Below the pieces are notes generated by a model. It saw nothing but the letters and a program-made list of their open reading frames with translations, ran no database searches and was not told the DNA's origin. A DNA stretch of 64,000 bases, from the NCBI GenBank assembly GCA_028706745.1, contig JAQTVM010000007.1:7008-71007 (forward strand), given 5' to 3'. The DNA is from Candidatus Nanoarchaeia archaeon (lineage in GTDB: Archaea; Nanobdellota; Nanobdellia; SCGC-AAA011-G17; GW2011-AR17). Both the position numbers and the translations under genes were made by a program. Below, piece after piece: positions 4,805-62,691 of the stretch (positions within the stretch are counted from its first letter, which is position 1; each line of letters starts with the position of its first letter).

Positions 4805-4944
4805 TTTTTACCCCCTAAACCCTGTTTGGGGTTCCGAAACAATAGTGCTCGAAACTTATGTTTCGGCACCCCGAGACGTAGTCTCGATGGTTTCGATACC
4901 CGAATTATTGTTTTTAAGGAACTACGACTGGTTTATAAAGCTTT

Positions 4945-9003: not shown

Positions 9004-9580
9004 CAATAATGAGTTTGCGGAAATTAGAAAGGAATTAAAGCAGTCTGAAGAAAAAAGGGAAGACACAATAAGGAAATCAAGGGACATCATAATGCTTTCA
9101 AAGCAGATTATATATTCTGCGCAGAGAGGGGACTTGAATAAGGCTGAAGCGCTTTGCGCTGAGATAAAAAAGGCAGTTGCTCTGCTTCCGAAAGAATACT
9201 GCGGCACTGACATGGAAAGCGTTGCTGTGCAGGAATATGTTGAAGCTGTCTGCTTTTTTGAATTTGTGAAAAACAAGAAACTCATGACAAGAAAAGAGCT
9301 TTCTGCGGACACTGAGAATTATCTGCTTGGCTTGTGCGACTTGACAGGCGAGCTTGTAAGGCAGGCTGTTAATGCCGCAATCAACAAGAGATATGAAGAA
9401 GCGCTCCAGATAAAAGATTTTGTTTCTGAGATTTACGGCGAGTTTTTGCAGTTTGACTTGAGAGGCGGGCAGTTAAGGAACAAGGCTGACTCAATCAAGT
9501 GGAACCTGAAGAAGCTTGAGGACCTGGCTTTGGGAATTTCAATAAAATCTCCGATTGAGCTTCGTTCTGACAAGGATTAG
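8996..9580 (+). CDS. translin-family nucleic-acid-binding protein
   Basis: 194 aa; translin-like motif YLLGLCDLTGELVRQAVN; start overlaps the PHP gene stop by 8 nt. Confidence 0.65.
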   Translation: MIDNNEFAEIRKELKQSEEKREDTIRKSRDIIMLSKQIIYSAQRGDLNKAEALCAEIKKAVALLPKEYCGTDMESVAVQEYVEAVCFFEFVKNKKLMTRKELSADTENYLLGLCDLTGELVRQAVNAAINKRYEEALQIKDFVSEIYGEFLQFDLRGGQLRNKADSIKWNLKKLEDLALGISIKSPIELRSDKD

Positions 9581-10371
9581 AATTCCTGCACTTTCCTGTA
9601 AGGAATGTTGAGATTTGCCAATAATTCTTTAACAATTTCCTTGTGGGCTTTCAATCCTTTCCAGTCGAGCAATACAAATTCTATTTTTTCGACATTCTTT
9701 TCAAGCATTTGCCTGAGCATTGCTTCATCAAGATTAGGTAATTGGTATTCAGGGCACATCTGCCCTATTGCATATTCTGTCCTCAATAAGAATTTGTTGT
9801 ATTCTCTCGGATAATGAGGACCGCCGATTGCAATGACTGCCTTGCATTCTGCTATCGGCTTCTGCAGGACACTCATTATTGTTTTTGCTATGATTTCCCC
9901 TGCTTCCTTTATTCCCCACTCATTTATTGAAGAGCCGATTTCAATGAACATTGCGGGCTTTTCAAGAAGAGGACCGTGATGCACTGTCTCAAGAGTTATT
10001 TCATAGCCTTCCAATTCTTTCCCATTTTCATTCAGCTCCAAGAACATTGCTTTCAGCAAAGAAGCGGGAGCAATGCACAAAGTCTTGTCTTTGCCGCCCA
10101 TCTCCGCATTTCCAAAATTACCGGGAATATGCACTGACAATGATTTTGTGCCTGCCTTTGACTGGTGCTTTGTTGCGAATATGAGAATGTCTGCATTTAT
10201 TTCCTTGTCAATATTTTCGCAATAAATGGTTTCTTCTTCTGTTTCAAACAAAAGAATATTGCCTAAAGCGCGATGGTTTTCCTCTTCCTTAAAATCAAAC
10301 AGCCGGAGGAGGCATTCCCTTATATTCTTTCCCGCCTCGTCTTTCTTCGACGTGATTACTGCGTATTTCAT
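9577..10371 (-). CDS. dtdA: D-aminoacyl-tRNA deacylase, archaeal type
   Basis: 264 aa; VHHGPLLEKPAMFIEIGSS matches the archaeal DtdA signature. Confidence 0.75.
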   Translation of the reverse strand: MKYAVITSKKDEAGKNIRECLLRLFDFKEEENHRALGNILLFETEEETIYCENIDKEINADILIFATKHQSKAGTKSLSVHIPGNFGNAEMGGKDKTLCIAPASLLKAMFLELNENGKELEGYEITLETVHHGPLLEKPAMFIEIGSSINEWGIKEAGEIIAKTIMSVLQKPIAECKAVIAIGGPHYPREYNKFLLRTEYAIGQMCPEYQLPNLDEAMLRQMLEKNVEKIEFVLLDWKGLKAHKEIVKELLANLNIPYRKVQEF

Positions 10372-21120: not shown

Positions 21121-21243
21121 CCCGCCTTAGCTCAGTGGTGGAGCACACGGCTGTAGAAAATGTGCGACAAGGCAATGATTGCCATGGATGATACACATTC
21201 AGCCGAACCCGTGAGGTCGCCGGTTCGAGTCCGGCAGGCGGGA
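21121..21243 (+). tRNA. tRNA-Tyr (anticodon GTA) with an ~50-nt anticodon-loop intron
   Basis: CCCGCCT acceptor with C1:G72 (archaeal Tyr identity), D-arm TAGCTCAGTGGTGGAGCA, anticodon stem CACGG…CCGTG with CTGTAG then inserted sequence before CCGTG, T-arm GCCGGTTCGAGTCCGGC, 3' AGGCGGGA. Confidence 0.7.
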
Positions 21244-48390: not shown

Positions 48391-48397
48391 TTTTAAT

Positions 48398-48492
48398 GGG
48401 CCTTTAGCTTAGCCTGGCTAGAGCACTCGACTGATATCAAGCATGGCTTGGAAGAAATCGAGAGGTCGCGGGTTCGAATCCCGTAGGGCCCA
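48398..48492 (+). tRNA. tRNA-Ile (anticodon GAT) with an ~20-nt anticodon-loop intron
   Basis: GGGCCTT acceptor, anticodon stem CTCGA…TCGAG with CTGATA then inserted sequence, T-arm GCGGGTTCGAATCCCGT, 3' AGGGCCCA. Confidence 0.7.
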
Positions 48493-48572
48493 TTTCTTAA
48501 TTTTAATTGCTTGAAATAAAAATAGAGATTAGCAAACAGGATAGCCCTGCGGGTATGAACGCAGTGAATACA

Positions 48573-48640: not shown

Positions 48641-48957
48641 GTCCTATATTCTGCAGTATACAAATGCTTTTAAAACAACAATCCATTCCTTACTTGAAAA
48701 AAGGTGTGAAAAGCCCGAACTATAAACCATGTATTCTAGAAAGGCAAGAACTAATCGAGCCAAAGAATACCCCCAAGTTTGGGCTCACAAATCCTTGAGG
48801 CGCGAAAAGCCCAGCCAGACCTGAGTCTCGCCATTGAAATGGAAAGAGGCAAAGAGCTTCGGCTCAATCAGTTTTGTTTGGGCTCGCAGGGCCATTATGG
48901 GCGCGCAGGAGTTTTAAGCATAATTCTTATAAAGAGATGAAAGATTACAAAAGTGCC

Positions 48958-49992
48958 ATGAAAACAGCAATATATTACAATAACAGTGATGTTAGAAACG
49001 AGGAAATGCCTGTTCCTGACATTTCAGATGATGAGATTCTTTTCAAGACAATAGCTTCAGGCATCTGCGGAAGCGACTTGATGGAATGGTACAGGATTAA
49101 GAAAGCGCCCTTAGTTTTGGGGCACGAGGTTGCGGGCATAGTTGAAAAAAAAGGAAAGAATGTTACTGATTTTGATGAAGGCGAGAAAGTTTTCGTGACG
49201 CATCACGTGCCTTGCGGCTCCTGCAAGTACTGTAAAAATGGCAATGACACTGCGTGCGACACTTTAAGAAAAACAAACTTCTATCCGGGCGGATTCTCTG
49301 AATACATCCGGATTCCTGCAATTAACATTGAAAAGGGGATGCTTAATCTCCCCTCAAACGTGGGATTTGAGGAAGGAACATTTATTGAGCCATTGGGATG
49401 TGCTGTAAGGGGGCAAAAGAGGCTGGGAATAAAACAGGATGATTCGCTTCTTGTAATGGGATGCGGGCCTGCAGGAATACTTCACATAAAACTGGCAAAG
49501 GCAAAAGGTGTAAAAAAAATAATGGCAACTGACATAAATCCTTACAGGATCCAATTGGCAAGGCTAAACAGCGCAATACCCATTCATGCGCTTGACGATG
49601 TGCATTCAATACTAAAATACAGGCTTAACGGAGAGCTTGCTGACAAGGTAATTGTATGCACAGGAGCCCTTCCTGCAGCAAAGCAGGCATTCAATTGCGT
49701 TGACAGGGGAGGAACTGTATTGTATTTTGCAGTTCCGCGCCCTGACGAGGATGTTGTTGCGCCTTTGAACGAATTCTGGAAAGACGAAAAGACGATTGCA
49801 TTTTCATACGGCGCAGGAATGCGAGACAATAAGGAAGCCTTGGAATTGATTGCCTCAGGCTCAGTTGACATAAGGGACATGATTACGCACAGGCTGCCTT
49901 TGGAAAAAGCAAAGGAAGGGTTCAGAATTGCTTCAAAAGAAATGGATGCAATGAAAGTCATATTTTACCCGCACGGAATTACAAAGGATTGA
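48958..49992 (+). CDS. zinc-dependent alcohol/threonine dehydrogenase family (MDR)
   Basis: GHEVAG catalytic-zinc motif, structural-zinc Cys cluster CGSCKYCKNGNDTAC, Rossmann GCGPAG; start chosen at the internal MKTAIYY (track ORF starts 48874). Confidence 0.8.
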   Translation: MKTAIYYNNSDVRNEEMPVPDISDDEILFKTIASGICGSDLMEWYRIKKAPLVLGHEVAGIVEKKGKNVTDFDEGEKVFVTHHVPCGSCKYCKNGNDTACDTLRKTNFYPGGFSEYIRIPAINIEKGMLNLPSNVGFEEGTFIEPLGCAVRGQKRLGIKQDDSLLVMGCGPAGILHIKLAKAKGVKKIMATDINPYRIQLARLNSAIPIHALDDVHSILKYRLNGELADKVIVCTGALPAAKQAFNCVDRGGTVLYFAVPRPDEDVVAPLNEFWKDEKTIAFSYGAGMRDNKEALELIASGSVDIRDMITHRLPLEKAKEGFRIASKEMDAMKVIFYPHGITKD

Positions 49993-50022
49993 CAAAAAGA
50001 AAGGAGAATACAGGAGGCTAAA

Positions 50023-50883
50023 ATGGAAACAAGGCAATGGTGGGCGAACATTGATGACATGTTTGGGTTTGCGGCAAGAGCTGCAAAAAAACATAAGGGA
50101 AACAGCATTACTGCAAGTTACCGCTCGCTGAATGACAAAAATTCAACAATAATCATTGAAGCTGACAGAAAGGGATTTGAAAAAGGCAGTTATGATTTTA
50201 TCTCATTTGAAACAGAATTTCCGTTTGGAAAAAAGGTTGATTCTGAAAAGCTGATAAGAAATGCGCTTGACAGCTTTGGAGGATATAATATTTATTTTTC
50301 AGCAAGCAAATTGCACAACAACGAAATAAAGGGGCTTGAAATGGAAATAAGGAAGGCAGACTGGATTGAATGCATCTTTCCTTACACTTCAGTTGCGCTT
50401 GACTGCTCAATTTCAGCAGACGGCGAAGTCACGAAAGATGATTTAAGGCATTACAAGGACATTGCGATGCTTCTTGGAGCAAGCGTGGAGCTTGGAGACA
50501 GTGAAACAGAGTTCAGCATAGCAGGGCAGATGAAAATCCCTTATGGAATGATTGCCTTTGATAGAGGAAAAATTTGGCAGCCTGTTGATGCTTTTAACGC
50601 AGCATACGGAAGAGGTATGGATGTTGAGATAAACTCTTGGAAAAAGGATACTGAGATATGCCTCAAGTTCGGAAAATACGGGCTTGAGAGAATTGCAGGA
50701 AGCATTTCAGCAAGGAAAAACCTTATTTTTGGCGTAAATAAGGGGCAAGCTGATGCAATGTACAGGCTTTTTTCAGGCGTAAGCGAGTTCTGCGCAAGGG
50801 AATGGATTGTTGAGCCGCATATTGAAAAAAAAGCAACTTATGAAACCCCTGAACCGAAATTAAAGATAAAGGTGAATGCATGA
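50023..50883 (+). CDS. hypothetical protein
   Basis: 286-aa ORF; 4-nt overlap with the downstream isomerase gene. Confidence 0.55.
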   Translation: METRQWWANIDDMFGFAARAAKKHKGNSITASYRSLNDKNSTIIIEADRKGFEKGSYDFISFETEFPFGKKVDSEKLIRNALDSFGGYNIYFSASKLHNNEIKGLEMEIRKADWIECIFPYTSVALDCSISADGEVTKDDLRHYKDIAMLLGASVELGDSETEFSIAGQMKIPYGMIAFDRGKIWQPVDAFNAAYGRGMDVEINSWKKDTEICLKFGKYGLERIAGSISARKNLIFGVNKGQADAMYRLFSGVSEFCAREWIVEPHIEKKATYETPEPKLKIKVNA

Positions 50884-51962
50884 ATGTAAAAATCAACGGC
50901 ATTAAAAAGCACTTCCGCACTGTTTGGATGAAAGGGAATAATGTGTTTATGATAAACCAGCCGTTATTGCCTCACAAATTCAAGATATTCAAGTGCAAGA
51001 CTTATCTTGACACTGTGGAAGCAATCAAGGATATGACTGTTCGGGGAGCAGGGGCTATTGGGGCAACTGCGGGTTATGCAATGTGCCAAGCTGCTCTGGA
51101 ATCAGCCAAACTGAGAAAGCCAATGAAATATCTTTTCAAGGCTGCAAACACAATAAAAGATTCGCGCCCAACTGCGCAGAACTTGTTTTATGCAGTTGAC
51201 AGGGTTTGCGATGCAATGCTCGGAAAAGAAACGCTTGAATCTGCTGTTGAGGCTGCTGTTCTTGAGGCAAACGCAATTGCTGACGATGATGCAGAAGCCT
51301 GCAAGAAGATTGGAGAGTTGGGGAATACGCTGTTGGGTTCCAAGGATTCTGTTTTAACGCACTGCAATGCAGGATGGCTTGCTTTTGTTGATTATGGTTC
51401 TGCTTTGTCTCCTGTGTACGCTGCAAAGGCAGCCGGAAAAAAGATTATTGTTTACTCTGACGAGACAAGACCCAGATTGCAGGGAGCTAATTTAACAGCT
51501 TGGGAATTGTTGAACGAAGGGATAGAGCATTACGTGATTCCTGACAACGCAGCAGGCGCTTTCATGAAAAACGGAAGAATAGGGATTGTAATTGTGGGCG
51601 CTGACAGGATTGCAAACAACGGGGACACTGCAAACAAGATAGGGACTTATGAGAAAGCAATCTGCGCAAGGGCTGCCGGAATTCCGTTTTATGTCGCTGC
51701 TCCGAGTTCAACATTTGATGTGAAATGTCGCAGTGGAAGGGACATCCCCATTGAATACAGAAGCGAGGATGAAGTTCATTGGGTTTATGGAATTACGGAA
51801 AAAAGAAGGAGAAGCAAAGTGCGAGTGACTCCTGAAGGCTCAAGAGCATTGAACCCTGCGTTTGACGTGACTCCTGCTGAGTATATTTCAGGTTTTATCA
51901 CGGAGAAAGGCATTATCTTCAACGAGAACAAGGGATTTGACTTTGAGAAGCTGTGGAAGTAA
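50880..51962 (+). CDS. eIF-2B alpha/beta/delta-like sugar-phosphate isomerase (ribose-1,5-bisphosphate or 5-methylthioribose-1-phosphate isomerase)
   Basis: 360 aa; VRGAGAIGATAGYAM… and …GADRIANNGDTANKIGTY typical of the eIF2B-related isomerase family. Confidence 0.75.
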   Translation: MNVKINGIKKHFRTVWMKGNNVFMINQPLLPHKFKIFKCKTYLDTVEAIKDMTVRGAGAIGATAGYAMCQAALESAKLRKPMKYLFKAANTIKDSRPTAQNLFYAVDRVCDAMLGKETLESAVEAAVLEANAIADDDAEACKKIGELGNTLLGSKDSVLTHCNAGWLAFVDYGSALSPVYAAKAAGKKIIVYSDETRPRLQGANLTAWELLNEGIEHYVIPDNAAGAFMKNGRIGIVIVGADRIANNGDTANKIGTYEKAICARAAGIPFYVAAPSSTFDVKCRSGRDIPIEYRSEDEVHWVYGITEKRRRSKVRVTPEGSRALNPAFDVTPAEYISGFITEKGIIFNENKGFDFEKLWK

Positions 51963-51963
51963 A

Positions 51964-52764
51964 ATGCAAAGAAGGGATTTTCTTAAAATACTTGGAATGG
52001 GGGCTGCTGCTTCATTAGTTCCTTCTGTGTTAAAAGCTGATGATAGAGACGAGAATAAAACAACGCCTTTGGAAGTTCCTGTCCTGATGTACCACGCAGT
52101 TGACAGGAAAGACAGCATTTATTCAAGAACTCCCGAGAGATTCAGGCAGGATTTGGAATGCCTTTATGAAAAAGGATACAAGCTGAGCACAATTGAAGAA
52201 TTGGTTAGCGGAAGCTTCAGCGCTGAAAAGCCTGTTGTAATCACATTTGATGATGCAAGGGGCTCGCAGTTCAGGCTGGAAGAAGAAGGGATTATTACCC
52301 ATAATTGCGCTGTGGGAATTATGGAAGATTTCTGCGGTTCCCATCCTGATTTTGGCAAGACAGCAATGTTTTATATTTCATTTTCAGCAAATGCCGCATT
52401 CGGGCAGAGAAACTCTGTTGAATACAAGCTTAACTGGCTTTTGGACAATGGATATGAAATCGGGAACCATACAATGAGGCACACCAATATGTCAAGGTGC
52501 AGTATTCAGGAATTCAGGGACACGATAACTGAATGCCAGGATAAGCTCGAGGATTACATTGGAGAAAGGATTTCGCTTGTAAAATCATTCTGCTTTCCGT
52601 ACTGCGCAGTCCCGTCTGATGAGAACAGATGGGAATTCCTGAGAAGTTATTTCACTTCTGCCACTATAGGCGGAGGAAGAAGCTATTGCAATGATGACTT
52701 GTTCAGGATTCCAAGGTACGGGATTGTCAGCTCCACAAGGATAGAACGGATAGCGGGATTATAA
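51964..52764 (+). CDS. polysaccharide deacetylase (CE4) with Tat signal
   Basis: MQRRDFLKILGMGAAASLVPSV twin-arginine signal; CE4 motifs VITFDDA and HTMRH. Confidence 0.75.
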   Translation: MQRRDFLKILGMGAAASLVPSVLKADDRDENKTTPLEVPVLMYHAVDRKDSIYSRTPERFRQDLECLYEKGYKLSTIEELVSGSFSAEKPVVITFDDARGSQFRLEEEGIITHNCAVGIMEDFCGSHPDFGKTAMFYISFSANAAFGQRNSVEYKLNWLLDNGYEIGNHTMRHTNMSRCSIQEFRDTITECQDKLEDYIGERISLVKSFCFPYCAVPSDENRWEFLRSYFTSATIGGGRSYCNDDLFRIPRYGIVSSTRIERIAGL

Positions 52765-52968
52765 AGCCAGCCTCCGGCGTTAATTCTCTTAATTTCAATT
52801 TATTAACCCTAATTCAGGATTTGGGACGTTTATCCGGACTATTGTTTCTTTTTGCAGAAGTTATGAAAAGTTTCCTGAATTTTTGAAGGATTTGCAAAAC
52901 AGCAGGCAAGGCTTAAAAAGGGCAGATTAAGTTATTGTCTTGACATTTTTAAAATAAGGGGTGATAAA

Positions 52969-53238
52969 ATGAAAAGGAAAATATCTTCAAAAGAATTTGA
53001 GATTCCGTGGTGGGACGACTGGTATAATGCGGACTGCATTGAAAGGCTCGAGCTTGTAAAAAAGCTGCTTATAACACGGGAGCTAACTGGCGCGTTTGTA
53101 AAGATGGGCATAAAGAAAAAATATGCTGAAACAGCTGCAGCGAGCAATGTAAACGGCTACTTTGAGGATTTTGAGAGCTATCTGGCAGAAAGGGAAAGGA
53201 TTGACGGACAAGGCAGAAAGAGGAGGCATAAAGCTTAA
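52969..53238 (+). CDS. hypothetical small protein
   Basis: 89-aa ORF with a GGGGTGA SD-like sequence upstream. Confidence 0.35.
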   Translation: MKRKISSKEFEIPWWDDWYNADCIERLELVKKLLITRELTGAFVKMGIKKKYAETAAASNVNGYFEDFESYLAERERIDGQGRKRRHKA

Positions 53239-53285
53239 ATACAACCTTGTTCCTCATTATTAACATATTGTTAATTTAAAGGAAC

Positions 53286-53774
53286 ATGAAAGGAATAAGC
53301 GGAAAGGAAATGGAAATCGTGTCGGAATTGGAATTCAAGAATCAGTACTTTTTTACCAGAGAGGAGATTAAAAGGCACTTTACAAGCGCAAATGAGATGA
53401 ATGTTTACCTTCACAGGATGCGGAAGAAAGGGAGGATAATAAAGCTGAACAAACATACGTATTACCTGATTCCTGTAAGGGCAATTGGCGGAAAGTGGTC
53501 AGAGCATCCATATGCCATTATAGATGAGATAATGGACGGCAAAGGATATTGCATTGCCGGCAAGGCCGCCGCTTATTACTGGAAGCACATGGAGCAAATC
53601 CCGTTCCAGTATGAGGTATTTAATACAAGAATGCAAAAAAAGATGGAAATTTTTCATGCCAAGATTAATTTTATAAAAAAAAGGAAGGAAAACCTGCCAA
53701 AAATTACAGAACGTGAAATTCGCGGGCACAGGTTCCTGATAGCAACAAAAGGAGAAAGCAGGAAATGGTCATAA
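53286..53774 (+). CDS. AbiEi-like putative antitoxin/regulator
   Basis: 162 aa directly upstream of, and overlapping, the AbiEii-like gene. Confidence 0.45.
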   Translation: MKGISGKEMEIVSELEFKNQYFFTREEIKRHFTSANEMNVYLHRMRKKGRIIKLNKHTYYLIPVRAIGGKWSEHPYAIIDEIMDGKGYCIAGKAAAYYWKHMEQIPFQYEVFNTRMQKKMEIFHAKINFIKKRKENLPKITEREIRGHRFLIATKGESRKWS

Positions 53775-54505
53775 CAATTGACGAGCTAACAATTATAGCA
53801 GGCAGTAAAGGGTTTGATATTGCAATAATCGAAAAAGATTATCTCCTCACTTACCTCCTTTACACAATCAAGGACGTTGAAGGGATATACTTTAAAGGCG
53901 GGACAGCGTTAAACAAGATATTCCTCAAGCACCAGAGAATTTCAGAAGACCTTGACTTTACATTATCAAGAAGCCTGCCTTCTGTTGAAAAAGACATAAG
54001 GGACAGGCTTAAAGGCACAATATTCAGCAACATAGAAGAAGGCAATAAAGTTGAAGGATTCACAAGACTCATTGTTCATTACAAACTGTTCCATGAGGCA
54101 GGCACAATATTCATTGACCTGAACGAAAGGGGAAAAATGCTTCTGAAACCTAAAAGATTCATGGTGCCTCATTTTTACGGCAGGCACATCCCTCGTTTTG
54201 AAGTAAGATGCATACATCAAAATGAGATAATTGCGGAAAAAGTAATGGCAGCCTGCCAGAGATACAAGCCAAGAGATTATTTTGACTTGTATTATATCAT
54301 CAAGCGCAATTTGCCGCTCTCAATCGGGCTTGTAAGGAAGAAATTCAGGGCAAATAATGAAAAGTTCAGCTCTTATCTGCTGTTCAAGAACACAAACAGG
54401 ATATTCAACAAATGGGAAGATGACTTGTCAAGCCTAACAAAAACACTGCCCTCTTTCAATAAAGTGATGCCTGTAATAAAAAAGAAAGTTAAGTACAGGG
54501 AGTAA
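53765..54505 (+). CDS. AbiEii/DUF1814-family nucleotidyltransferase toxin
   Basis: 246 aa; YFKGGTALNKIFLKHQRISEDLDF signature of the AbiEii nucleotidyltransferase family. Confidence 0.7.
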   Translation: MVITIDELTIIAGSKGFDIAIIEKDYLLTYLLYTIKDVEGIYFKGGTALNKIFLKHQRISEDLDFTLSRSLPSVEKDIRDRLKGTIFSNIEEGNKVEGFTRLIVHYKLFHEAGTIFIDLNERGKMLLKPKRFMVPHFYGRHIPRFEVRCIHQNEIIAEKVMAACQRYKPRDYFDLYYIIKRNLPLSIGLVRKKFRANNEKFSSYLLFKNTNRIFNKWEDDLSSLTKTLPSFNKVMPVIKKKVKYRE

Positions 54506-54546: not shown

Positions 54547-56694
54547 TCAGCTTACCTTGCTTCCCTCAGCAATGTCATTCTCCACTGTTAATAGCCCTAA
54601 CTTTTCATTCTCTGAAGCGGCTAGCAGCATTCCGTTGCTTTCAATGCCTCTCAGGACTACTGGTTGCAAGTTTGTTATGACTATAATCTTCTTTCCCAGA
54701 ATCTTTTCAATAGGATAATGCTTTCTTATGCCTGCGACAATCTGCCTTTCTTCCATGCATTTCCCGAAGTTGACTAATAAGACGACTAATTTGTCTGCGT
54801 TCGGATGAGGCTGTGCTTTCACGACTTTCCCGACTCTTATGTCCATTTTTGCGAATTCGTCATAGCTGACGTGGTTGCATGCAGGGCATGCTTTTAACTG
54901 CACTGACGCCGGTTCCTTGTGTTCTTTAGGATGTTCTTGTTTCATCTTATTTTCCTCCTTGTTCATCATGCTTCTTTCTTCAAGCGGATGTCCGCTTTGC
55001 TTGTCAATTGGCTTGACTTCCTTTGTTAATCGCTCTTTGAAGTATTCAGTGACTTTTGAAGTTTTTGTTTTAAGCTCTTCCATTTCCTTGTCTTCTAATT
55101 TATGGAAGAGAAGCTCTATTTTGTTTAATTTCTGGTTTGGCTTGACTTGCAGTTTATTTATTTTTTTCCAGTCCTTGTCTTTGGCGTTAAGCATCTTAAG
55201 TATTTTTTCTGAAGTTTGGGGCAGGAACGGCTGGACTAGCAAGGCTATCATTCTTGACATGTTTGCGCAGACGTACAAGACGTTCTTTGACTTTTCCGGC
55301 ACTTTCCACGGCTCGTTGTCCTGGAAATACTTGTTTGCCATTGCTGACAGTCTCATTGTTTCTTCCAAAGCGCTTCTTAACTCAACTCTTTCAAAGGCGG
55401 CTTTTATGACTTCTATTTGCTTTTCAACCTGCTTTAGGAAGGTTTTGTCTGCTTTTGTTAAAACTGCCTTGGGGACTTTGTTGCCGTATTTGCTTACTAT
55501 GAATGTCAGTGAGCGGTTGACGAAGTTCCCAAGATTGCCTACCAGCTCGTTGTTTATCTTGTCCTGGAAGTCTTTCCAGTAGAACTCAGTGTCTTTTGTC
55601 TCCGGTATGAGGAATGTCAGATAATATCTCCAGTAGTCAGGGCTTAAGCCGGTGGATGCAAGGTTTTCGCAGAAAACTCCCCATTTTTGGCTTTTTGAAA
55701 ACTTGCGCCCCTCAAAGTTAAGGTACTGCTGCCCGACTACATTATATGGCAGATTAAATTTTCCGTTAGCCATAATCATGGCCGGAAAAAATATTGTATG
55801 GAAAGGTATGTTATCCTTGCCCAGAAAATTATATATCCTTGCATTCTTGTCCTGCCAGAAGAGCTTCCACTTTGTCTTGTTCCACTCCTTTGTTGATGAA
55901 ATATAGCCAATCGGGGCATCAACCCAGACGTAATAGACTAAGTCTTCAAAGCCCTTAAACTGCACAGGCACTCCCCACTTGAGGTTTCTTGTAATGCACC
56001 TTGGCTTTAATCCCTCATTAATCCAGCCCAAAGCCAGGCTTCTTACCTGCTGCCTCCAGTGCTTGTTGCCTTTAATCCACTTCTCCAGCTTTGGAGAAAG
56101 CTTTTCAAAGTCCAGGAAGAGGTGCTTTTTTTCCCTGAATTCAATGTTTTTTGAATTGCAGATTGCACAGTAAGGGTTCTTCAGCTTTTCAGGGTCAAGC
56201 ATTGTGCTGCAGCTCTCGCACTGGTCGCCCCTTGCCTTATCGTATCCGCAGTTTGGGCAGGTTCCTTCTATGTAACGGTCGGAAAGTTGTCTCCTGCATT
56301 CGTTGCAGAAGGGCAGTGAAATGGTTTTTTCTATTATATAGCCATTCTTGTATATCTGGGCCATGAAGTCCTGGGTTGTCTTGTAGTGTATCGGCTTGCT
56401 TGTTCTTGAGAAGTTGTCATAGCTGATGTTAAACCAGTCGTATATACCCTTATGAAGCTTAAAGTAGAAGTCGCAGAGCTCCTTGGGGGTAATGCCATAC
56501 TTGCTTGCAGCTATTTCACTTGCTGTCCCGTGCTCGTCTGTGCCGCCAATGAAGACAGTTTGAAAGCCTTGTAATCTGCAGTATCTTGCGAAGATGTCAG
56601 CCGGCAGCTGAGAGCCCGCTATATGCCCCAGATGGGGAAGATTATTCGTATAGGGCAGTGCACATGTTATGAGACGCCTTTCCTTATTTTTCAT
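54547..56694 (-). CDS. metG: methionyl-tRNA synthetase with C-terminal tRNA-binding (EMAP/Trbp111-like) domain
   Basis: 715 aa; HIGH motif PYTNNLPHLGH, KMSKS motif KFSKS, zinc knuckles CPNC…CESC, C-terminal OB-fold tRNA-binding domain. Confidence 0.9.
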   Translation of the reverse strand: MKNKERRLITCALPYTNNLPHLGHIAGSQLPADIFARYCRLQGFQTVFIGGTDEHGTASEIAASKYGITPKELCDFYFKLHKGIYDWFNISYDNFSRTSKPIHYKTTQDFMAQIYKNGYIIEKTISLPFCNECRRQLSDRYIEGTCPNCGYDKARGDQCESCSTMLDPEKLKNPYCAICNSKNIEFREKKHLFLDFEKLSPKLEKWIKGNKHWRQQVRSLALGWINEGLKPRCITRNLKWGVPVQFKGFEDLVYYVWVDAPIGYISSTKEWNKTKWKLFWQDKNARIYNFLGKDNIPFHTIFFPAMIMANGKFNLPYNVVGQQYLNFEGRKFSKSQKWGVFCENLASTGLSPDYWRYYLTFLIPETKDTEFYWKDFQDKINNELVGNLGNFVNRSLTFIVSKYGNKVPKAVLTKADKTFLKQVEKQIEVIKAAFERVELRSALEETMRLSAMANKYFQDNEPWKVPEKSKNVLYVCANMSRMIALLVQPFLPQTSEKILKMLNAKDKDWKKINKLQVKPNQKLNKIELLFHKLEDKEMEELKTKTSKVTEYFKERLTKEVKPIDKQSGHPLEERSMMNKEENKMKQEHPKEHKEPASVQLKACPACNHVSYDEFAKMDIRVGKVVKAQPHPNADKLVVLLVNFGKCMEERQIVAGIRKHYPIEKILGKKIIVITNLQPVVLRGIESNGMLLAASENEKLGLLTVENDIAEGSKVS
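56375..56446. repeat. 72-nt core shared 71/72 with 59200-59271 (inside metG codons ~84-107)
   Basis: direct comparison of the two metG 5' copies: flanks ~75-80% identical with many synonymous differences, core essentially identical. Confidence 0.7.
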
Positions 56695-56783
56695 AGGAAT
56701 ATAAAATGCTGATTGTGTTTATATTCTTTGCGCAGAGAATAAGTGCAATCCAAATACATTGCCCTAGGCTGCACACCAAGGCA

Positions 56784-56795
56784 TATATTTATATA
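56784..56795 (+). promoter_or_regulatory. TATA-like element in the divergent metG / radical-SAM intergenic region
   Basis: TATATTTATATA about 58 nt upstream of the rSAM ATG; GGGGAGTGA SD 7 nt before ATG. Confidence 0.3.
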
Positions 56796-56852
56796 GAAAT
56801 GAGATATTAGCATATAAGAATTAATTAGTTTCAAATAGGGGAGTGATTAAAG

Positions 56853-58199
56853 ATGGGATACTTGGCCTTGCCAAAAAACTGTAAAATTGCCGGCACAAAA
56901 TCGCATATTATGATACATAATATCAAGACAAACGAAACAATTAGGATTTACCCGGAATTATACGATTTTATCAGAAAAGCGCAGCACAGGAATATTCAAA
57001 AAATAGATGAATTGGCTTCAGGCGCGAATATCAGCAAGGCACTGCAATTCCTGTTTAAAGAAAAGGGCTTATGCCTGTCAGAGCAGGAATATGCCTTCCC
57101 TGAATTAAAAGAAGGGGTGTATCTCAAGGAAGCAATGATAGAGATAACAGGGCATTGCAATCTTGCCTGCAGGCACTGCTATATGGTGGACTACCAGAAG
57201 TATGAATTATCTAAAGAAGAAATGTACGACATCATAGACCAGCTGCATAAAATGGGCGCTACAGGCATGGCATTGTCAGGTGGCGAGCCCCTGACGCATC
57301 CTTATTTTGATGATATTGTCAATTATGCCATACTTAAGGGGATAAGGGTAGGCGAGATATACACAAACGGGACGCTAATCTCAAAAAAGTTTGACATATT
57401 AAAGAAGATAGCTGATAATTTCGGCAGAATAGAGGTTTATGTCAGCCTTGACGGAATAGGGAAAACGCACGATTCTTTCCGCGGGCAGCCCGGGGCATTT
57501 GAAAAGACAATAGAAGGGATAAAGCTCCTGAAAAAATTAGGGGTTCAGATTAATATAACGTCCACGCTGTCAAGGCATAATATAGGGGAAATATTCGAAT
57601 TCTATGAGTTTGTCAAAACGCTAGGCATTTATAACTGGCACGTATCCCAGCCTTTCGGCATTGGCAGATGGACAACCATAGAAGAGGACATGCGCATCAG
57701 CCCAGGCGAGGAATGCGGCATATATATTGAGATAATAAAACGCTATCTGCGCGACAAGCCTGAAATGCACATTAACTTTTCGGAATTTTTTAACAGCATA
57801 ATCCTTGAGAAAGGGCTCCGCTTTTTTTCATGCGACAGCCATGTCTGCCCGTATGCCAGGAACAGGTGCGGCATCAAGCCCAACAAGGACATAACATGGT
57901 GCACTTCACTTAATGAGCAGATTGTCGGGAACCTAGGCAATAACAGCCTGTCAGGGATTTGGAATTCGGAAAGCATGCGCAAAATGAAGGACTTAAAAGT
58001 TGAAAATCTCAAATCCTGCAAGAACTGCAGGTACATGCACATCTGCGGAGGCGGCTGCCGCGTTTATTCCCAGCTGTACAACAAGGACGTCCTAAGCGAA
58101 GATCCAAGAAAATGCTTTTTTGTAAGGGAATTTTATGCAAAAGTGGTGCCAATGCTACCCAAAGATTTAAAAGCTAGCATTCTTAATAAGGTAGAATAA
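56853..58199 (+). CDS. radical SAM/SPASM-domain peptide-modifying enzyme with N-terminal RRE-like extension
   Basis: 448 aa; CNLACRHC (Cx3Cx2C); C-terminal SPASM Cys motifs (CDSHVCPY…C…CKNCRYMHICGGGCR); ~95-aa N-terminal domain before the rSAM core. Confidence 0.85.
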   Translation: MGYLALPKNCKIAGTKSHIMIHNIKTNETIRIYPELYDFIRKAQHRNIQKIDELASGANISKALQFLFKEKGLCLSEQEYAFPELKEGVYLKEAMIEITGHCNLACRHCYMVDYQKYELSKEEMYDIIDQLHKMGATGMALSGGEPLTHPYFDDIVNYAILKGIRVGEIYTNGTLISKKFDILKKIADNFGRIEVYVSLDGIGKTHDSFRGQPGAFEKTIEGIKLLKKLGVQINITSTLSRHNIGEIFEFYEFVKTLGIYNWHVSQPFGIGRWTTIEEDMRISPGEECGIYIEIIKRYLRDKPEMHINFSEFFNSIILEKGLRFFSCDSHVCPYARNRCGIKPNKDITWCTSLNEQIVGNLGNNSLSGIWNSESMRKMKDLKVENLKSCKNCRYMHICGGGCRVYSQLYNKDVLSEDPRKCFFVREFYAKVVPMLPKDLKASILNKVE

Positions 58200-58211
58200 G
58201 GAGGTTATGAA

Positions 58212-58355
58212 ATGAAAGCCAACAAGAAGACAGAAAAGAAAGTAGCCAAGGACGCAGCTGAAGTTCCGGAAGAAAAAGAGGAAAAGCTTGCGGAAAAAGA
58301 GGAAATGCTGCCGACATTGAAAGGCTCCATGAACTCTTACAACGCGAATTGCTAG
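58212..58355 (+). CDS. 47-aa putative RiPP precursor peptide (not in ORF track)
   Basis: AAGGAGG SD then ATG 12 nt after the rSAM stop; MKANKKTEKKVAKDAAEVPEEKEEKLAEKEEMLPTLKGSMNSYNANC, a K/E-rich leader-like region followed by a short C-terminal core ending in Cys. Confidence 0.5.
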   Translation: MKANKKTEKKVAKDAAEVPEEKEEKLAEKEEMLPTLKGSMNSYNANC

Positions 58356-58356
58356 A

Positions 58357-59067
58357 ATGTGCACATTTGGCATCAAGCTAACTGATAAAAGAAGGTATAT
58401 TTTTAAGAACTTAGATGTTCATAAAGTTATTTTCAGCTATTCTTTGCCTATAATAGACAAGAATGTATTGAAATTCTACATCCCGGGAAAAAATGGCATC
58501 TGGACAGGCATAAACCGGAAAGGCCTGCTTATCCAGACTGCAGAGCATACTGGCAATTTAATCTCAAAATGCAAGATTAACACATGGCCTATTTTTGAAA
58601 GAATGCTTGAGCATTGCAATGATACATATTCAGGTTTGGCATTTCTTATGAGCCGGTTTAAAGAGGCCAAAATGGACCTGCCTGGAAGCATCCTGCTGTC
58701 TGACAGGAATACGTCCATCATAGCAGAGTACTATCCCTCTGTATGGGGCATTAAAATAATAGATGATTGTGATGCAAGAGCAGGGATTTTTGGAGTATTA
58801 ACATCCTTCAATAAAAAGCCCAAGCCTGACAGGGCGCATCTTGCTGTCCGATTAATGTCCAAAATAAAAGATAAAAATGCAGTTGACAGCTTAAAGGCAT
58901 TATGCAGAAAGCATAACATGAAGAATTCTATTTGCCGGCATAAAGGTCCTAATACCAATGGTTCTATCATAATGGATATTTCAGAAAAAGCTGCAATAAT
59001 ACATTATGTTCTTAACAGCCATCCCTGTAAATCTGAGTATAAAAGAATAGTATTTGAATTATACTAG
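58357..59067 (+). CDS. Ntn-hydrolase (C45/choloylglycine-hydrolase-like) with N-terminal Cys nucleophile
   Basis: 236 aa beginning MCTFG… (Cys2 exposed after Met removal, as in Ntn acyl/peptide hydrolases); starts 1 nt after the peptide stop. Confidence 0.55.
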   Translation: MCTFGIKLTDKRRYIFKNLDVHKVIFSYSLPIIDKNVLKFYIPGKNGIWTGINRKGLLIQTAEHTGNLISKCKINTWPIFERMLEHCNDTYSGLAFLMSRFKEAKMDLPGSILLSDRNTSIIAEYYPSVWGIKIIDDCDARAGIFGVLTSFNKKPKPDRAHLAVRLMSKIKDKNAVDSLKALCRKHNMKNSICRHKGPNTNGSIIMDISEKAAIIHYVLNSHPCKSEYKRIVFELY

Positions 59068-59516
59068 TTATTGCAGTTGGGGCAGGTTCCTTCTATGTAC
59101 CTGTCTGATAACTGCCTTTTGCATTCATTGCAGAAGGGAAGGGAGATGCTTTTTTCTATTATATAGCCGTTTTTGTGTATTTTTGCTATTACTTCCTGTG
59201 TTGTCTTGTAGTGTATTGGCTTGCTTGTTCTTGAGAAGTTGTCATAGCTGATGTTAAACCAGTCGTATATATCTTTATGTATCTTGTAGTAGAAATCACA
59301 TAATTCTCTGGGAGTAATGCCGTATTTCTGCGCAGCTATCTCGCTTGCAGTGCCATGCTCATCTGTTCCGCCTATGAAGATGGTTTGATATCCTTGCAGT
59401 CTGTTGTATCTGGCGAAGATGTCAGCTGGGAGATGAGAGCCTACGATGTTTCCTAAGTGTGGTACGTTGTTAGTGTAAGGAAGTGCGGATGTGATTAATC
59501 TTCTTTCCTTAGTCAT
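59064..59516 (-). pseudogene. 5'-terminal 150-codon duplicate of metG (truncated MetRS fragment)
   Basis: MTKERRLITSALPYTNNVPHLGN… about 80% identical to MetRS aa 1-148, ends TCPNCNN*, abutting the convergent hydrolase stop. Confidence 0.7.
59200..59271. repeat. second copy of the 72-nt metG core (see 56375-56446)
   Basis: 71/72 identity. Confidence 0.7.
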
Positions 59517-59599: not shown

Positions 59600-60199
59600 T
59601 TAGCTTTTCTTCAGCATCAGCTCTTTAACCAATGTCAAAAATTCCCTTGCTCTTTTCTCTGATGTTTCTGCCTTTGATTTTATTGCTATCATTCCCATCT
59701 CATATGTGAAATCCCTTCTCTTTCCCATTTCCAGCCTTACTGATTCTATGCTGTTTCTTGCCTCTTCTTCAGCTGTCCTTAAAAGTTCTGACGATTCCCT
59801 TTCGGCAATGCTGTACTGCTCAAGAATGTGCTTTGTGAGCTTCTTGTCGCAGTCAAGAAAATAATACACCAATGCGTGGCAAGTTAATGCGTGGATTCCG
59901 TAATCTGTCTTGATTTTATGGTTATATGCTGCAAGCAATGCTGTTGCTGCATAGAACATTGAATAATATCCTGTGTTAATTGCCCACATGTAGGATTCAT
60001 ATGCCTGCGGAAGATTCAGGAGTTTCTTTGCTTCGCTGCTTTTTGAAAGTTTTATCAATGCAGAGCAGGTTTGCAGCGAAGATTCTGATTTGCTGAGAAA
60101 GAATTCTGCAAATCCGGATTCGGGCTTTACTATTGCGCCTTTCTGGATGAGCCCTGTAATAACTGCCCTTGATTTTTTTATATCCTTGTCTGTCATCAT
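59600..60199 (-). CDS. HEPN-domain protein (paralog of 26137-26763)
   Basis: 199 aa; GYYSMFYAATALLAAYNHKIKTDYGIHALTCHALVYYF parallels the first HEPN. Confidence 0.6.
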   Translation of the reverse strand: MMTDKDIKKSRAVITGLIQKGAIVKPESGFAEFFLSKSESSLQTCSALIKLSKSSEAKKLLNLPQAYESYMWAINTGYYSMFYAATALLAAYNHKIKTDYGIHALTCHALVYYFLDCDKKLTKHILEQYSIAERESSELLRTAEEEARNSIESVRLEMGKRRDFTYEMGMIAIKSKAETSEKRAREFLTLVKELMLKKS

Positions 60200-60786
60200 T
60201 TTGCCATCAGCCTGCAGTAATCCTCAAAGCCTGCAAGAATTATGTGATTGCCTTCAAGCTCATTCACCACGTTCAATCCTTTCTTTTGCCTCATTTCATT
60301 GAAGCTTTCCTCCGAGACTGAACTTATGTGCGTGTTGTATGACAGTGTGCTTAAAGCTGAGTTTGCTTCCTGCTCTGTTTCTTCGGGGTTTTTGGAAACA
60401 AGAAGTATGTCAATGTCGCTGTCTTTTGTTGCTTTTCCTTTTGCATGGCTTCCGAAGAGGATTGCTGTGCAGAATGAAGTGCTTATCTTTTCAAGCTCTT
60501 TTGCAACGAGCTGTATCTTATTGCTGTTTTTGATGAAATCTCTTGTTCTGAGGCTTTCCACGTATGCGTAAAGCGCTGTGTCTGTTTGCAGGTTTATGCT
60601 GCATATGCTGCTGTTGCCCTGCTTTGCTATTGAGAGGATATTTTCTTTTTGCATCTTAATCGCCTCCTCGTAGGCCTGCCTGTAGTTTATTTTTGCGTTT
60701 TTTGAAAGCGCTCTTATTGTATGCGTTTCTTTCGGGCTTGCGAGCATTGTCTTCAGGATTGATATTCTTGAGTTTGTTATTACCAT
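60196..60786 (-). CDS. minimal nucleotidyltransferase with N-terminal wHTH (paralog of 25517-26140)
   Basis: 196 aa; FGSHAKGKATKDSDIDILLVS; 4-nt overlap with the downstream HEPN gene. Confidence 0.8.
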   Translation of the reverse strand: MVITNSRISILKTMLASPKETHTIRALSKNAKINYRQAYEEAIKMQKENILSIAKQGNSSICSINLQTDTALYAYVESLRTRDFIKNSNKIQLVAKELEKISTSFCTAILFGSHAKGKATKDSDIDILLVSKNPEETEQEANSALSTLSYNTHISSVSEESFNEMRQKKGLNVVNELEGNHIILAGFEDYCRLMAK

Positions 60787-61213
60787 TTGTAATAGTATTA
60801 TTACTTTTAGGAATATATAAGCCTTTCGCTCTTTTGCGTTTCTTCTTTATTCCTGTCTCGGCCATTTGCCTTATTATTTCCCTGCTGTATCCGCCTGTAA
60901 GCTCGCCTATGAATTCCTCCGCAGTTATTACCTCTGTTTGCCCCTGTTCCATAAATATCACCTCAATGAAGGCTGAATCTAGTTTGCTATATAAGCCGTG
61001 CGCGTGTGTTTGACGAGTGGCAAGTCGTATGCATATTTCCGGTTAGTGTATGCAGATTTTCAAAGAATTGTTTATTCTTCCGGATTATTCTCGGAGAGAA
61101 ATCCCTGTTTTTTATAGAATTTTTGGAAACCACTTGACACGCGTTCGTGGCAAGTGGAAGGAGGTTGGGGAACTAAGATTGGTTATTAGCTTTCCTTTCT
61201 GCCCAAGCCCGCT

Positions 61214-61861
61214 TTAAGCTCTTGCCAGTGCAATCTCTTTCATGGGGTTTGCAAACGGCGTTTCCGGTGAAATATCCTCAAATCCCATATTCGTGAATCT
61301 TGAATGCAATTCCTGCATTGCCTTTGGCCTTGAATTTGCAGCTTTTTCCATGTCGCACAAAAGGCTGTAAGTGACAAGGCTTTCATTAAAACCCCTGTAA
61401 CCCTTCTTGCTTATGCATCTCTTGCACATGCTGATAAGCCTCAATGCTGACTTCCTGCTGTTTGACAATAGGAGAAAAGCCCTTTTCAAAAGCGCATCAA
61501 ATTCGCTTAAATCCGCTTCTGTTACGCATTTGAGCATGAAATATCCCCTGCCTGCTGTCATTACCTCAAAACCCGGCAGGAAATCGTTTATTGTCTGCTG
61601 CAATTCATCAGGGCTTACTTTTCCAGTAACTTTTATCTCGTCATAGCCGAGCTGGTATGCCTTTATGAGCTTCTCCTTGCTGTATTCCACTGATAATGCC
61701 CTGTCTTCAGGCTTAAGGTTTCCGGCGGTGATTACTACCCTTCCAATGTCCTCACTCATGTCAATCTCCTGACCTTTTTCCAGACCGTGATTCTTTACCC
61801 ATCCAGCAGGCAAAGAAATGACGTATGTCTTCCCGCCCATGAGCATTATGCTTCGTTTCAT
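61214..61861 (-). CDS. AbrB/MazE/SpoVT-type swapped-hairpin regulator with uncharacterised C-terminal domain
   Basis: start at the internal Met with GGGAGA SD; MKRSIMLMGGKTYVISLPAGWVKNHGLEKGQEIDM is an AbrB-like N-terminus. Confidence 0.55.
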   Translation of the reverse strand: MKRSIMLMGGKTYVISLPAGWVKNHGLEKGQEIDMSEDIGRVVITAGNLKPEDRALSVEYSKEKLIKAYQLGYDEIKVTGKVSPDELQQTINDFLPGFEVMTAGRGYFMLKCVTEADLSEFDALLKRAFLLLSNSRKSALRLISMCKRCISKKGYRGFNESLVTYSLLCDMEKAANSRPKAMQELHSRFTNMGFEDISPETPFANPMKEIALARA

Positions 61862-61885
61862 GTTTGTTCTCCCGAGGTATAGAAC

Positions 61886-61902
61886 CTCTAGATGTTCTAG
61901 AG
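61886..61902. promoter_or_regulatory. perfect 7-3-7 palindrome CTCTAGA-TGT-TCTAGAG upstream of the AbrB-like gene
   Basis: seen directly about 25 nt upstream of the start at 61861. Confidence 0.35.
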
Positions 61903-61962
61903 TTGGGGCGGGAAGTATATATTTAAAGGTAAGTTGTAGCAATGAATACTACACAAGAATGG

Positions 61963-62691
61963 CTATTTGGGAACTTTGGCTATTCTCCAAAGGAGATTAA
62001 AATAAGTTCTGTAAGAATCTGCTACATCTTTATCAACAATCTGAATAACTTTTGGGTTTTCTGCCCATATTATCAATGCAACTTCATCGCCGCAGATATG
62101 TGTTGCTACGAGAGATTCGACTTCGATAGGGGCATACTTTGCTTGTGTGTAAGGTAAGCTATTTAGATATTTAATCCTCTCTTTCGCATTAAAATTATAT
62201 ATATGCTTCATTACAACTTTCTGTTTGATCCTAATTTTATGAAAATTCATAATAAAATATTTTGCCATTTCTGGAGCCACTTTTGGGACGCCATAAACTA
62301 AGATCTCATCATTATGCTTCAAAAGCCCATAGAGTATCTTTGGTATTGCATTAATACCCTCAAATATATTTGCAAAGCTTCTTCTTTTTGCCATATCAAA
62401 CCTAGAGTTAAGGCAGGGTAATATGCTCTTTAACTTTAATTCTTTTTCTTTCCAAAAAAGTTCAAGGAATGCCGGATTAGATGCTTGGTAAATCTTTGTA
62501 TCATCTGTTGAAATAACAGATACGATTCCTTTTTCCATGAGTTTTTGTAAAGAATCATATATGTTGGGTCTGTGTATCTTGCATTTTTTGGATATTCCAA
62601 CTACAGATGAAGACCCTATCTCCAATAAGGCTATATAAACCTTAGCTTCGTTTAATGTCATTCCTAAATCCATTAATATATGCTCTTCCAT
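61963..62691 (-). CDS. TrmB-family transcriptional regulator
   Basis: 242 aa; LNEAKVYIALLEIGSSSVVGISKKCKIHRPNIYDSLQKLMEKGIV. Confidence 0.75.
   Translation of the reverse strand: MEEHILMDLGMTLNEAKVYIALLEIGSSSVVGISKKCKIHRPNIYDSLQKLMEKGIVSVISTDDTKIYQASNPAFLELFWKEKELKLKSILPCLNSRFDMAKRRSFANIFEGINAIPKILYGLLKHNDEILVYGVPKVAPEMAKYFIMNFHKIRIKQKVVMKHIYNFNAKERIKYLNSLPYTQAKYAPIEVESLVATHICGDEVALIIWAENPKVIQIVDKDVADSYRTYFNLLWRIAKVPK

Follow-up and report, generated by a model that had tools for sequence, protein, structure and literature searches.

A cassette of three adjacent genes, at positions 56853 to 59067 of the forward strand, was identified in a 64,000-nucleotide stretch of DNA (referred to below as the window) that covers positions 7,008 to 71,007 of a 72-kb contig (JAQTVM010000007.1) from a metagenome-assembled genome of a Candidatus Nanoarchaeia (DPANN) archaeon (GCA_028706745.1). 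The cassette encodes a radical S-adenosylmethionine (SAM) enzyme with a SPASM domain, a 47-residue candidate precursor peptide and a divergent N-terminal nucleophile (Ntn) hydrolase of the C45/AAT type. The architecture of the enzyme and the position of the three genes inside a single insert in the methionyl-tRNA synthetase (metRS) gene suggest an orphan, horizontally acquired module similar to those for peptides that are made by ribosomes and modified after translation (RiPPs), a reading to which we give an even chance.

Gene layout and acquisition of the cassette

The radical SAM/SPASM gene (56853..58199, 448 amino acids) is followed after 12 nt by the open reading frame (ORF) of the candidate precursor peptide (58212..58355, 47 amino acids) and, 1 nt further on, by the hydrolase gene (58357..59067, 236 amino acids), all three on the + strand. 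The coordinates, strand and gaps given for these ORFs in an earlier note, which was made from the letters of the DNA alone, were all reproduced. Its three-ORF observation is partly confirmed by the present analysis and its interpretation of the locus as RiPP-like is partly supported, the argument from architecture being the part that holds. Upstream of the cassette is an insert-specific region (56724..56852, + strand) with a TATA-like element, TTTATATA, at 56788-56795 and a Shine-Dalgarno (SD)-like element, GGGGAGTGA, at 56838-56846, and the promoter of the cassette may be assigned to this region. A scan with Rfam gave no match inside or near the cassette.

The upstream region and the three ORFs are the entire cargo of a 2.35-kb insert (approximately 56724-59072) lying between two copies of the 5' part of metRS. 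On the left is the full-length metRS gene (54547..56694, - strand, 715 amino acids), the first 450 nt or so of which (56248-56694) form the left-hand repeat, and on the right is a metRS 5' fragment (59064..59516, - strand, 150 codons) that forms the right-hand repeat. Direct repeats with 82% identity were located at 56248-56547 and 59073-59372, at a spacing of 2825 nt. The two metRS 5' copies share 78% identity in DNA and 85% in protein, and their low dN/dS (0.03) together with a dS of about 2.9 indicates that they diverged as working genes in two lineages. The metRS similarity of the fragment stops at 59073, 6 nt past the stop codon of the hydrolase gene, and on the other side the upstream similarity of metRS to its relatives ends at 56723 or earlier. 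Because the three genes together make up the whole cargo of an insert between diverged metRS repeats, they were acquired as one unit. This joint acquisition is the best available argument for the three genes belonging together.

The metRS fragment keeps the 40-60 nt of upstream sequence and the N-terminal motif that are found in the relatives, whereas the intact copy deviates from both. Near the conserved motif PHLG(N/H)I the intact gene reads ITCALPYTNNLPHLGHIAGSQLP, where the five closest relatives compared (L012-L016) and the fragment have a stretch with I-T-[SA]. Identity to L012 is likewise higher for the fragment (92%) than for the intact N-terminus (87%). These comparisons suggest that the intact metRS is chimeric and received its 5' end together with the insert. 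They are most simply read as the outcome of recombination into the resident gene by incoming DNA that carried a surrogate metRS 5' end and the three genes. Related Nanoarchaeota genomes, in which the cassette is absent, have IF2B, AbiE and metRS in common on the 3' side of metRS.

One related Nanoarchaeota genome (L015, UBA9640) has a metRS 5' piece at 4708-4810 and an intact metRS at 8007-10139. The cargo between these two pieces is 3.2 kb long and toxin-antitoxin-like, with nucleotidyltransferase-like and antirepressor-like genes, and the region is partly N-masked. The same topology in L015 points to a recurrent insertion hotspot in metRS, although the end-points of the repeats differ, lying at about codon 148 in the present locus and at codon 89 in L015. 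The order of target-gene 5' fragment, cargo and intact gene is also that of integrative elements which supply a surrogate end to the gene they enter. The present insert differs from such elements in that its 2.35 kb hold no integrase or other recombinase, the three cassette ORFs being the only ones between the repeats.

The radical SAM/SPASM enzyme

The enzyme matches the Pfam domains Radical_SAM (PF04055, 78.7 bits with the cut-off at 29.5, E = 7e-22) and SPASM (PF13186, 31.6 bits with the cut-off at 21.5, E = 2e-7). Its cluster motif, C102-x3-C106-x2-C109, is kept in all 120 homologues that were aligned, and an SGGEPL motif is present. Eight cysteines of the SPASM region (C332, C339, C350, C389, C392, C398, C402 and C421) occupy columns that are conserved in 57-99% of these homologues, the last five of them forming the pattern C389-x2-C-x5-C-x3-C402 followed by C421. 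The eight conserved C-terminal cysteines therefore indicate that the enzyme has a full SPASM domain. The cluster motif is preceded by an N-terminal extension of 95 amino acids, and the combination of a Cx3Cx2C cluster, a C-terminal SPASM domain and an extension of about this length, by which the enzyme had first been characterised, is verified in all three elements by Pfam and by alignment.

At the profile level the N-terminal extension has indirect links to PqqD/RRE domains. When the extension and the N-termini of its four nearest relatives were compared by hhalign with nine PF05402 (PqqD)-positive radical SAM N-termini, a match of 93% (E = 2.9e-7) was obtained over residues 3-54, and an iterative profile search also links the domain to PF05402-positive N-termini. 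It is regarded here as a putative, unproven domain of the RiPP recognition element (RRE) type. The GenBank model of the enzyme starts at M20 (56910) and has 429 amino acids. Since the alignment with the RRE strands of related enzymes takes in residues 3-19, and since only the start at 56853 is preceded by an SD (GGGGAGTGA, 6 nt 5' of the ATG), the 56853 start is favoured over M20, and the GenBank start is probably 19 codons too short.

Among the curated NCBIfam families, the highest scores were obtained with the AhbD/NirJ models (135-141 bits against cut-offs of 500-515), over the radical SAM and SPASM core; AhbD and NirJ2 reached 137-141 bits with the cut-off at 500. Models of peptide maturases scored lower, with 116 bits for StsB (cut-off 625), 116 for DynA (450), 104 for MftC (265), 98 for SbtM (350), 81 for PapB (340) and 80 for AlbA (850). 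The list of 25 NCBIfam families for the enzyme includes neither SkfB nor PqqE, which were encountered in the PDB alone, as matches to the radical SAM core. In the PDB comparison the sactisynthase SkfB is the best solved relative, and its core lies as far from the N-terminus as that of the enzyme. The AhbD/NirJ2 match is uninformative on the substrate, because these models also come out best for two relatives, P0002 and P0007, whose genes have peptide-like ORFs next to them. An anaerobic sulfatase-maturating enzyme, which the earlier note had named as an example of a family that would speak against its proposal, is not indicated, as the score against the corresponding model is 82.6 bits and its cut-off is 349; no sulfatase gene was found among the ten neighbour genes scanned (48874-54505 and 59600-62691).

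The 47-residue peptide

The peptide ORF is preceded by the SD GGAGGT (58200..58205, + strand), 6 nt 5' of its ATG, which agrees with the perfect SD reported for it at the outset. SD-like sites precede 12 of the 53 long ORFs in the window and 3% of random positions. The translation is MKANKKTEKKVAKDAAEVPEEKEEKLAEKEEMLPTLKGSMNSYNANC. As first described, its N-terminus is rich in Lys and Glu and leader-like, with both basic and acidic residues, and its core reads GSMNSYNANC, with a single Cys at the C-terminus that forms the pattern N44-x-x-C47. The ORF had also been described as unannotated, which is wrong: it is present in GenBank as MDD4878062.1 (locus tag PHO02_03440), was called by PGAP and occurs in a Logan assembly.

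The ORF fills the 157-nt gap between the radical SAM and hydrolase genes, in which the other two frames are closed. Its codon score of 0.548 per codon is higher than that of all 82 spurious overlapping ORFs of the window and lies in the upper range of real genes. The leader contains a 17-nt in-frame repeat with a spacing of 21 nt (58272-58288 and 58293-58309), encoding EKEEKLA and EKEEMLP. No match to the peptide was found in Pfam or NCBIfam, RiPP precursor models included, in line with the first view that it resembles none of the known SCIFF, sactipeptide or mycofactocin precursors. No paralogue was detected within the window, and viral contigs, scanned as DNA with a degenerate pattern for the core KGSMNSYNANC, yielded nothing. 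A likeness of the ...NAN-C end to microcin C precursors (MRTGNAN) was considered and dropped, as no MccB-like gene is present.

The Ntn hydrolase

The 236-amino-acid hydrolase has no direct match in Pfam, PF03417 included, and a word-indexed homology search retrieved only the protein itself. An exhaustive phmmer search recovered 38 distant homologues with identities of 25-37%, whose alignments start from residue 1 or 2 and in which C2, G5, K17, D20 and T200 are invariant. PF03417 (AAT/C45) is matched by 24 of the 31 aligned homologues, at best with 5.6e-18, and the family profile matches CV2077 (3e-15) and isopenicillin N acyltransferase (IAT; 9e-9), with Cys2 of the hydrolase aligned to Cys103 of IAT. 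The AlphaFold2 model has a predicted local distance difference test (pLDDT) value of 92.6 when built with the alignment and of 36 from the single sequence. The top structures returned by Foldseek for this model are 3gvz/CV2077, IAT, TANGO2, NAAA and bile-salt hydrolases, with template modelling (TM) scores of 0.71-0.75 to IAT and CV2077. The motifs FKN.D and G.W.G.N, R159 and the series H186...CRH...T200 are kept. The Met-Cys start, the distant homology and the predicted alpha-beta-beta-alpha fold of the C45/AAT type together bear out the earlier naming of the protein as an N-terminal-Cys Ntn hydrolase.

The hydrolase gene is not preceded by an SD, and 1 nt separates its ATG from the stop codon of the peptide ORF. 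For these two reasons its translation is expected to depend on translation of the small ORF, and the gene is probably translationally coupled to it. In L009 and L010, where a hydrolase homologue lies beside an aminopeptidase gene, the next gene is a metRS.

Relatives of the radical SAM enzyme and their neighbourhoods

The nearest relatives of the radical SAM enzyme are distant, with identities of 27-37%, and the best of them, at 35%, is without the cassette. Neither a C45 hydrolase nor a peptide similar to the 47-mer occurs in any of the eight homologue contexts that were compared. Scans of viral contigs for the radical SAM enzyme and for the hydrolase gave nothing.

Small ORFs of other kinds are found beside several of these relatives. 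P0002 and P0007, which are 37% identical to each other, adjoin small ORFs that are homologous (E = 2e-8), EIVIEELEDINPKHPFC and EFVIEALEEVAPKHPIC, and that share the leader pattern E(F/I)VIE.LE..PKHP.C. These ORFs, at L197 3652-3774 and L001 6298-6402 (minus strand), have no NCBIfam match and probably represent a separate RiPP precursor family. A Cys/Gly-rich ORF of 61 amino acids neighbours P0022, and P0020 has a second radical SAM gene and an ORF of 51 amino acids as neighbours. P0041 is neighboured by a K-rich ORF of 48 amino acids, which was rejected as a homologue of the peptide (E = 1.2). RRE-bearing relatives of the enzyme usually have a small ORF alongside. This supports a peptide substrate for the enzyme class and says nothing about the 47-mer itself.

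A cluster of three radical SAM genes and a B12-type radical SAM gene was also observed in a marine Nanoarchaeota genome (L037, 1477-6392), 1.3 kb upstream of metRS. It was rejected as a parallel, being a different and larger cluster without an enzyme of the RRE type.

Proposed pathway and alternative explanations

In the proposed pathway the three genes would be read on one transcript, with its start in the AT-rich stretch upstream of 56853. Through its RRE-like N-terminal domain the radical SAM enzyme would bind the charged leader of the 47-mer, and the radical SAM/SPASM part would then modify the C-terminal core GSMNSYNANC by radical chemistry. The product may be a single thioether ring at the C-terminus, in which the sulfur of Cys47 is joined to a carbon of an upstream residue. 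A precedent is NxxcB, which links Cys to the beta-carbon of Asn (a beta-thioether) in an NxxC motif (PMC9389541). A thioether is favoured here because the candidate substrates of the relatives contain Cys, because the closest solved enzyme makes thioethers, and because N44-A-N-C47 fits the NxxC pattern; by this analogy such chemistry at Cys47 can be named as a candidate, and a rather improbable one. The hydrolase, if active, would more probably cut an amide that is small or terminal, for example to trim the modified C-terminal part or set it free, than remove the leader by classical endoproteolysis, and its solved or named relatives (IAT, bile-salt hydrolase, NAAA and C69 dipeptidase) act on small amides. 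That the hydrolase takes part in the pathway at all seems somewhat unlikely.

A number of observations weigh against a RiPP-like module. The radical SAM enzyme does not score at the cut-off of any curated NCBIfam family, peptide maturases included, and PF05402 (PqqD) gives no direct Pfam match in it at E values up to 10. Of the peptide-maturase type of architecture that had been proposed for it, the SPASM domain, the RRE-like N-terminus and SkfB as the best solved match speak in favour, but no curated maturase cut-off is reached. A search of 5.8 billion protein clusters for homologues of the 47-mer found only the peptide itself. The open frame in its purine-rich Lys/Glu half is partly trivial, and its codon score comes mostly from the Lys/Glu codons of the leader (0.68), while the core scores 0.04 per codon. 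No homologue of the 47-mer or of the cassette as a whole was found in viral contigs or in related Nanoarchaeota genomes, and the module thus has no support from co-occurrence or covariation; this absence is uninformative and does not count as a negative, since the radical SAM enzyme has no close relative either. The tight spacing of the genes, from which co-transcription had been concluded, is real, but it is weak as evidence, since 37% of the same-strand gene pairs in the window are 15 nt or less apart.

The hydrolase adds to these points. The R-T-N-h-F motif, whose aligned counterparts are HTNHC in IAT and LTNNP in bile-salt hydrolase, reads R141-A-G143-I-F in this protein, and the Asn that Gly143 replaces is present in 30 of 30 homologues. 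This Asn corresponds to an oxyanion-hole residue of bile-salt hydrolase. The codon of Gly143 is GGG (58783-58785), and a sequencing error is unlikely because two base changes separate it from an Asn codon. The hydrolase therefore looks catalytically compromised, as judged from its alignment, and its competence is doubtful. At four of the five loci of hydrolase homologues that were looked up (L004, L008, L009/L010 and L011), the gene lies beside M28, M42/M20 or M29 aminopeptidases, and the fifth, a contig of 1.1 kb (L003), holds no other gene; this company suggests that short C45/AAT-like proteins take part in breaking down peptides. Metagenomes scanned with a degenerate DNA pattern for the hydrolase family gave 120 loci with 82 verified members, 69 of them with usable flank, and a radical SAM gene was found within 3 kb of the hydrolase homologue at one of these 69 (L167). 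This locus was rejected as a parallel, as its radical SAM gene is convergent, 1.6 kb away and without the N-terminal extension. The hydrolase had been offered as a candidate leader peptidase or amidohydrolase. The C45/AAT-type Ntn fold is in favour of that proposal, and the leader peptidase is its weakest part, given a family that acts on small amides, aminopeptidases as neighbours and Gly143.

Many of these points would also be expected if the three genes were neighbours without a shared pathway. The substrate of the radical SAM enzyme would then be some other protein or no peptide at all, the 47-amino-acid ORF would encode an unrelated small protein or would do no more than bring ribosomes to the SD-less gene that follows it, and the hydrolase would be a decaying copy of a housekeeping amidase or peptidase of the C45 family. 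The best curated matches of the enzyme are indeed the tetrapyrrole enzymes NirJ2 and AhbD, far below their cut-offs, the 47-mer is an orphan, the homologues of the hydrolase go with aminopeptidases and not with radical SAM genes, the invariant Asn is lost, and short gaps are common in the window. Against this explanation stand the single insert, whose cargo is precisely these genes, the RRE-like domain of the enzyme and the strong SD and coding signals of the peptide ORF, and the tetrapyrrole matches lose force as relatives with precursor-like ORFs likewise score best on AhbD/NirJ2. On balance this explanation is considered unlikely. A different use of the same genes is conceivable in a pathway similar to those of PQQ and mycofactocin, in which the enzyme would modify the segment Tyr43-Cys47 and the Ntn amidase would excise a small product, so that the peptide would serve as a scaffold to be sacrificed and would not be exported as a RiPP. 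Tyr and Cys both belong to the core, which stands at the very C-terminus, small amides are what the solved or named relatives of the hydrolase cleave, and the insert has neither a transporter nor a second protease. MftC and PqqE do occur among the weaker NCBIfam and PDB matches of the enzyme, but MftC stays at 104 bits against its cut-off of 265 and PqqE is a weak PDB match only. The doubt that Gly143 casts on the hydrolase applies here also, and a module that is not conserved would be unusual for a cofactor pathway; such a scaffold is, in our estimate, improbable.

The surroundings of the cassette raise the question of whether it is the cargo of a defence island, with a radical SAM-based anti-virus or conflict system. 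It is flanked by an AbiEi/AbiEii pair and by a PDC-M05-like pair, and the cargo at the same metRS hotspot in the related genome is toxin-antitoxin-like. The core of the enzyme matches the PADLOC pVip models at 63-71 bits, but this match covers residues 98-271 only (model positions 9-179 of 262), that is, the shared radical SAM core; SPASM families are matched more strongly, and the C-terminus of the enzyme is SPASM. Peptide and hydrolase have no PADLOC or PHROG match, and viperins are not known to carry an RRE or a SPASM domain. A viperin or defence reading of the enzyme was rejected because its core alone matches pVip, and defence cargo in general is judged very unlikely. Least probable of all, and barely to be entertained, is the idea that the cassette is a minimal mobile RiPP module which, on insertion, swaps the 5' catalytic segment of the essential metRS gene, and that the swapped segment acts as an addiction device or gives self-resistance to a MetRS-targeting product, made by a new radical SAM and Ntn chemistry on a C-terminal Cys core.

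Comparison with known systems

If the cassette is a RiPP-like module, its closest counterparts would be the RRE-dependent thioether synthases, both the sactisynthases (SkfB, AlbA and StsB) and the ranthipeptide enzymes (PapB and NxxcB). The enzyme has an N-terminal RRE-like domain, a radical SAM core and a Cys-rich C-terminal domain in the same order as these, and a short peptide containing Cys is encoded next to it, with a C-terminal N-x-x-C that fits the NxxcA motif (PMC9389541). It differs from them in that the precursor is unrelated to known families and is encoded 3' of the enzyme gene instead of 5', in that the single Cys of the 47-mer stands at the very C-terminus, and in that a protease or transporter of the usual type is absent from the cassette. 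Of the AhbD/NirJ type of tetrapyrrole enzyme, the heme b synthase P0093 (349 amino acids), which is the sole named example among the homologues, has no N-terminal extension, and its cluster motif begins at residue 19.

The hydrolase resembles the C45/IAT family (PF03417), one of the groups of Cys-Ntn hydrolases, which also include the bile-salt hydrolases (C59), in its predicted fold and in its N-terminal nucleophile Cys. It differs in that Cys2 directly follows the initiator Met, and for this reason it would need no autoprocessing of a propeptide. A full-text literature search found no description of an Ntn hydrolase in a RiPP pathway; the one co-occurrence of the terms was in a paper that, by its title, deals with molecular networking.

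A radical SAM/SPASM gene with an adjacent peptide ORF is a very common result of genome mining. What is unusual in the present case is the combination of a DPANN host, an orphan precursor, a C45 partner and a mobile setting. The cassette is a singleton without comparative support, and its value is that of a lead and not of a discovery. This low weight follows from the fact that architecture and co-acquisition alone support its function and that one of its components looks catalytically compromised. If the reading is true, a RiPP-type pathway would be present in a genome-reduced DPANN archaeon, with a precursor unrelated to any known family and with a C45 Ntn hydrolase as an accessory enzyme, a role not reported before for RiPPs, and the three genes would form a compact target for new radical peptide chemistry. 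The context also points to the 5' end of an essential tRNA synthetase gene as a small hotspot for cargo-carrying insertions in Nanoarchaeota, and this bears on how accessory genes are gained in tiny genomes.

Flanking genes and other features of the window

On one side of the cassette is an AbiEi/AbiEii toxin-antitoxin pair (53286-54505), and on the other side are a PDC-M05-like nucleotidyltransferase and its partner gene (59600-60786). The cassette region resembles in this respect a small defence or toxin-antitoxin island. Two intergenic blocks at 60996-61156, of 37-47 nt and with 85-92% identity, are common to the window and to L015 (6591-6837, partly masked) and have no Rfam match. Two long tRNAs are also found in the window. 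ARAGORN left the identity of the one at 48397-48493 unassigned; the other, at 21121-21243, was missed by ARAGORN, was found by Rfam and probably contains an intron.

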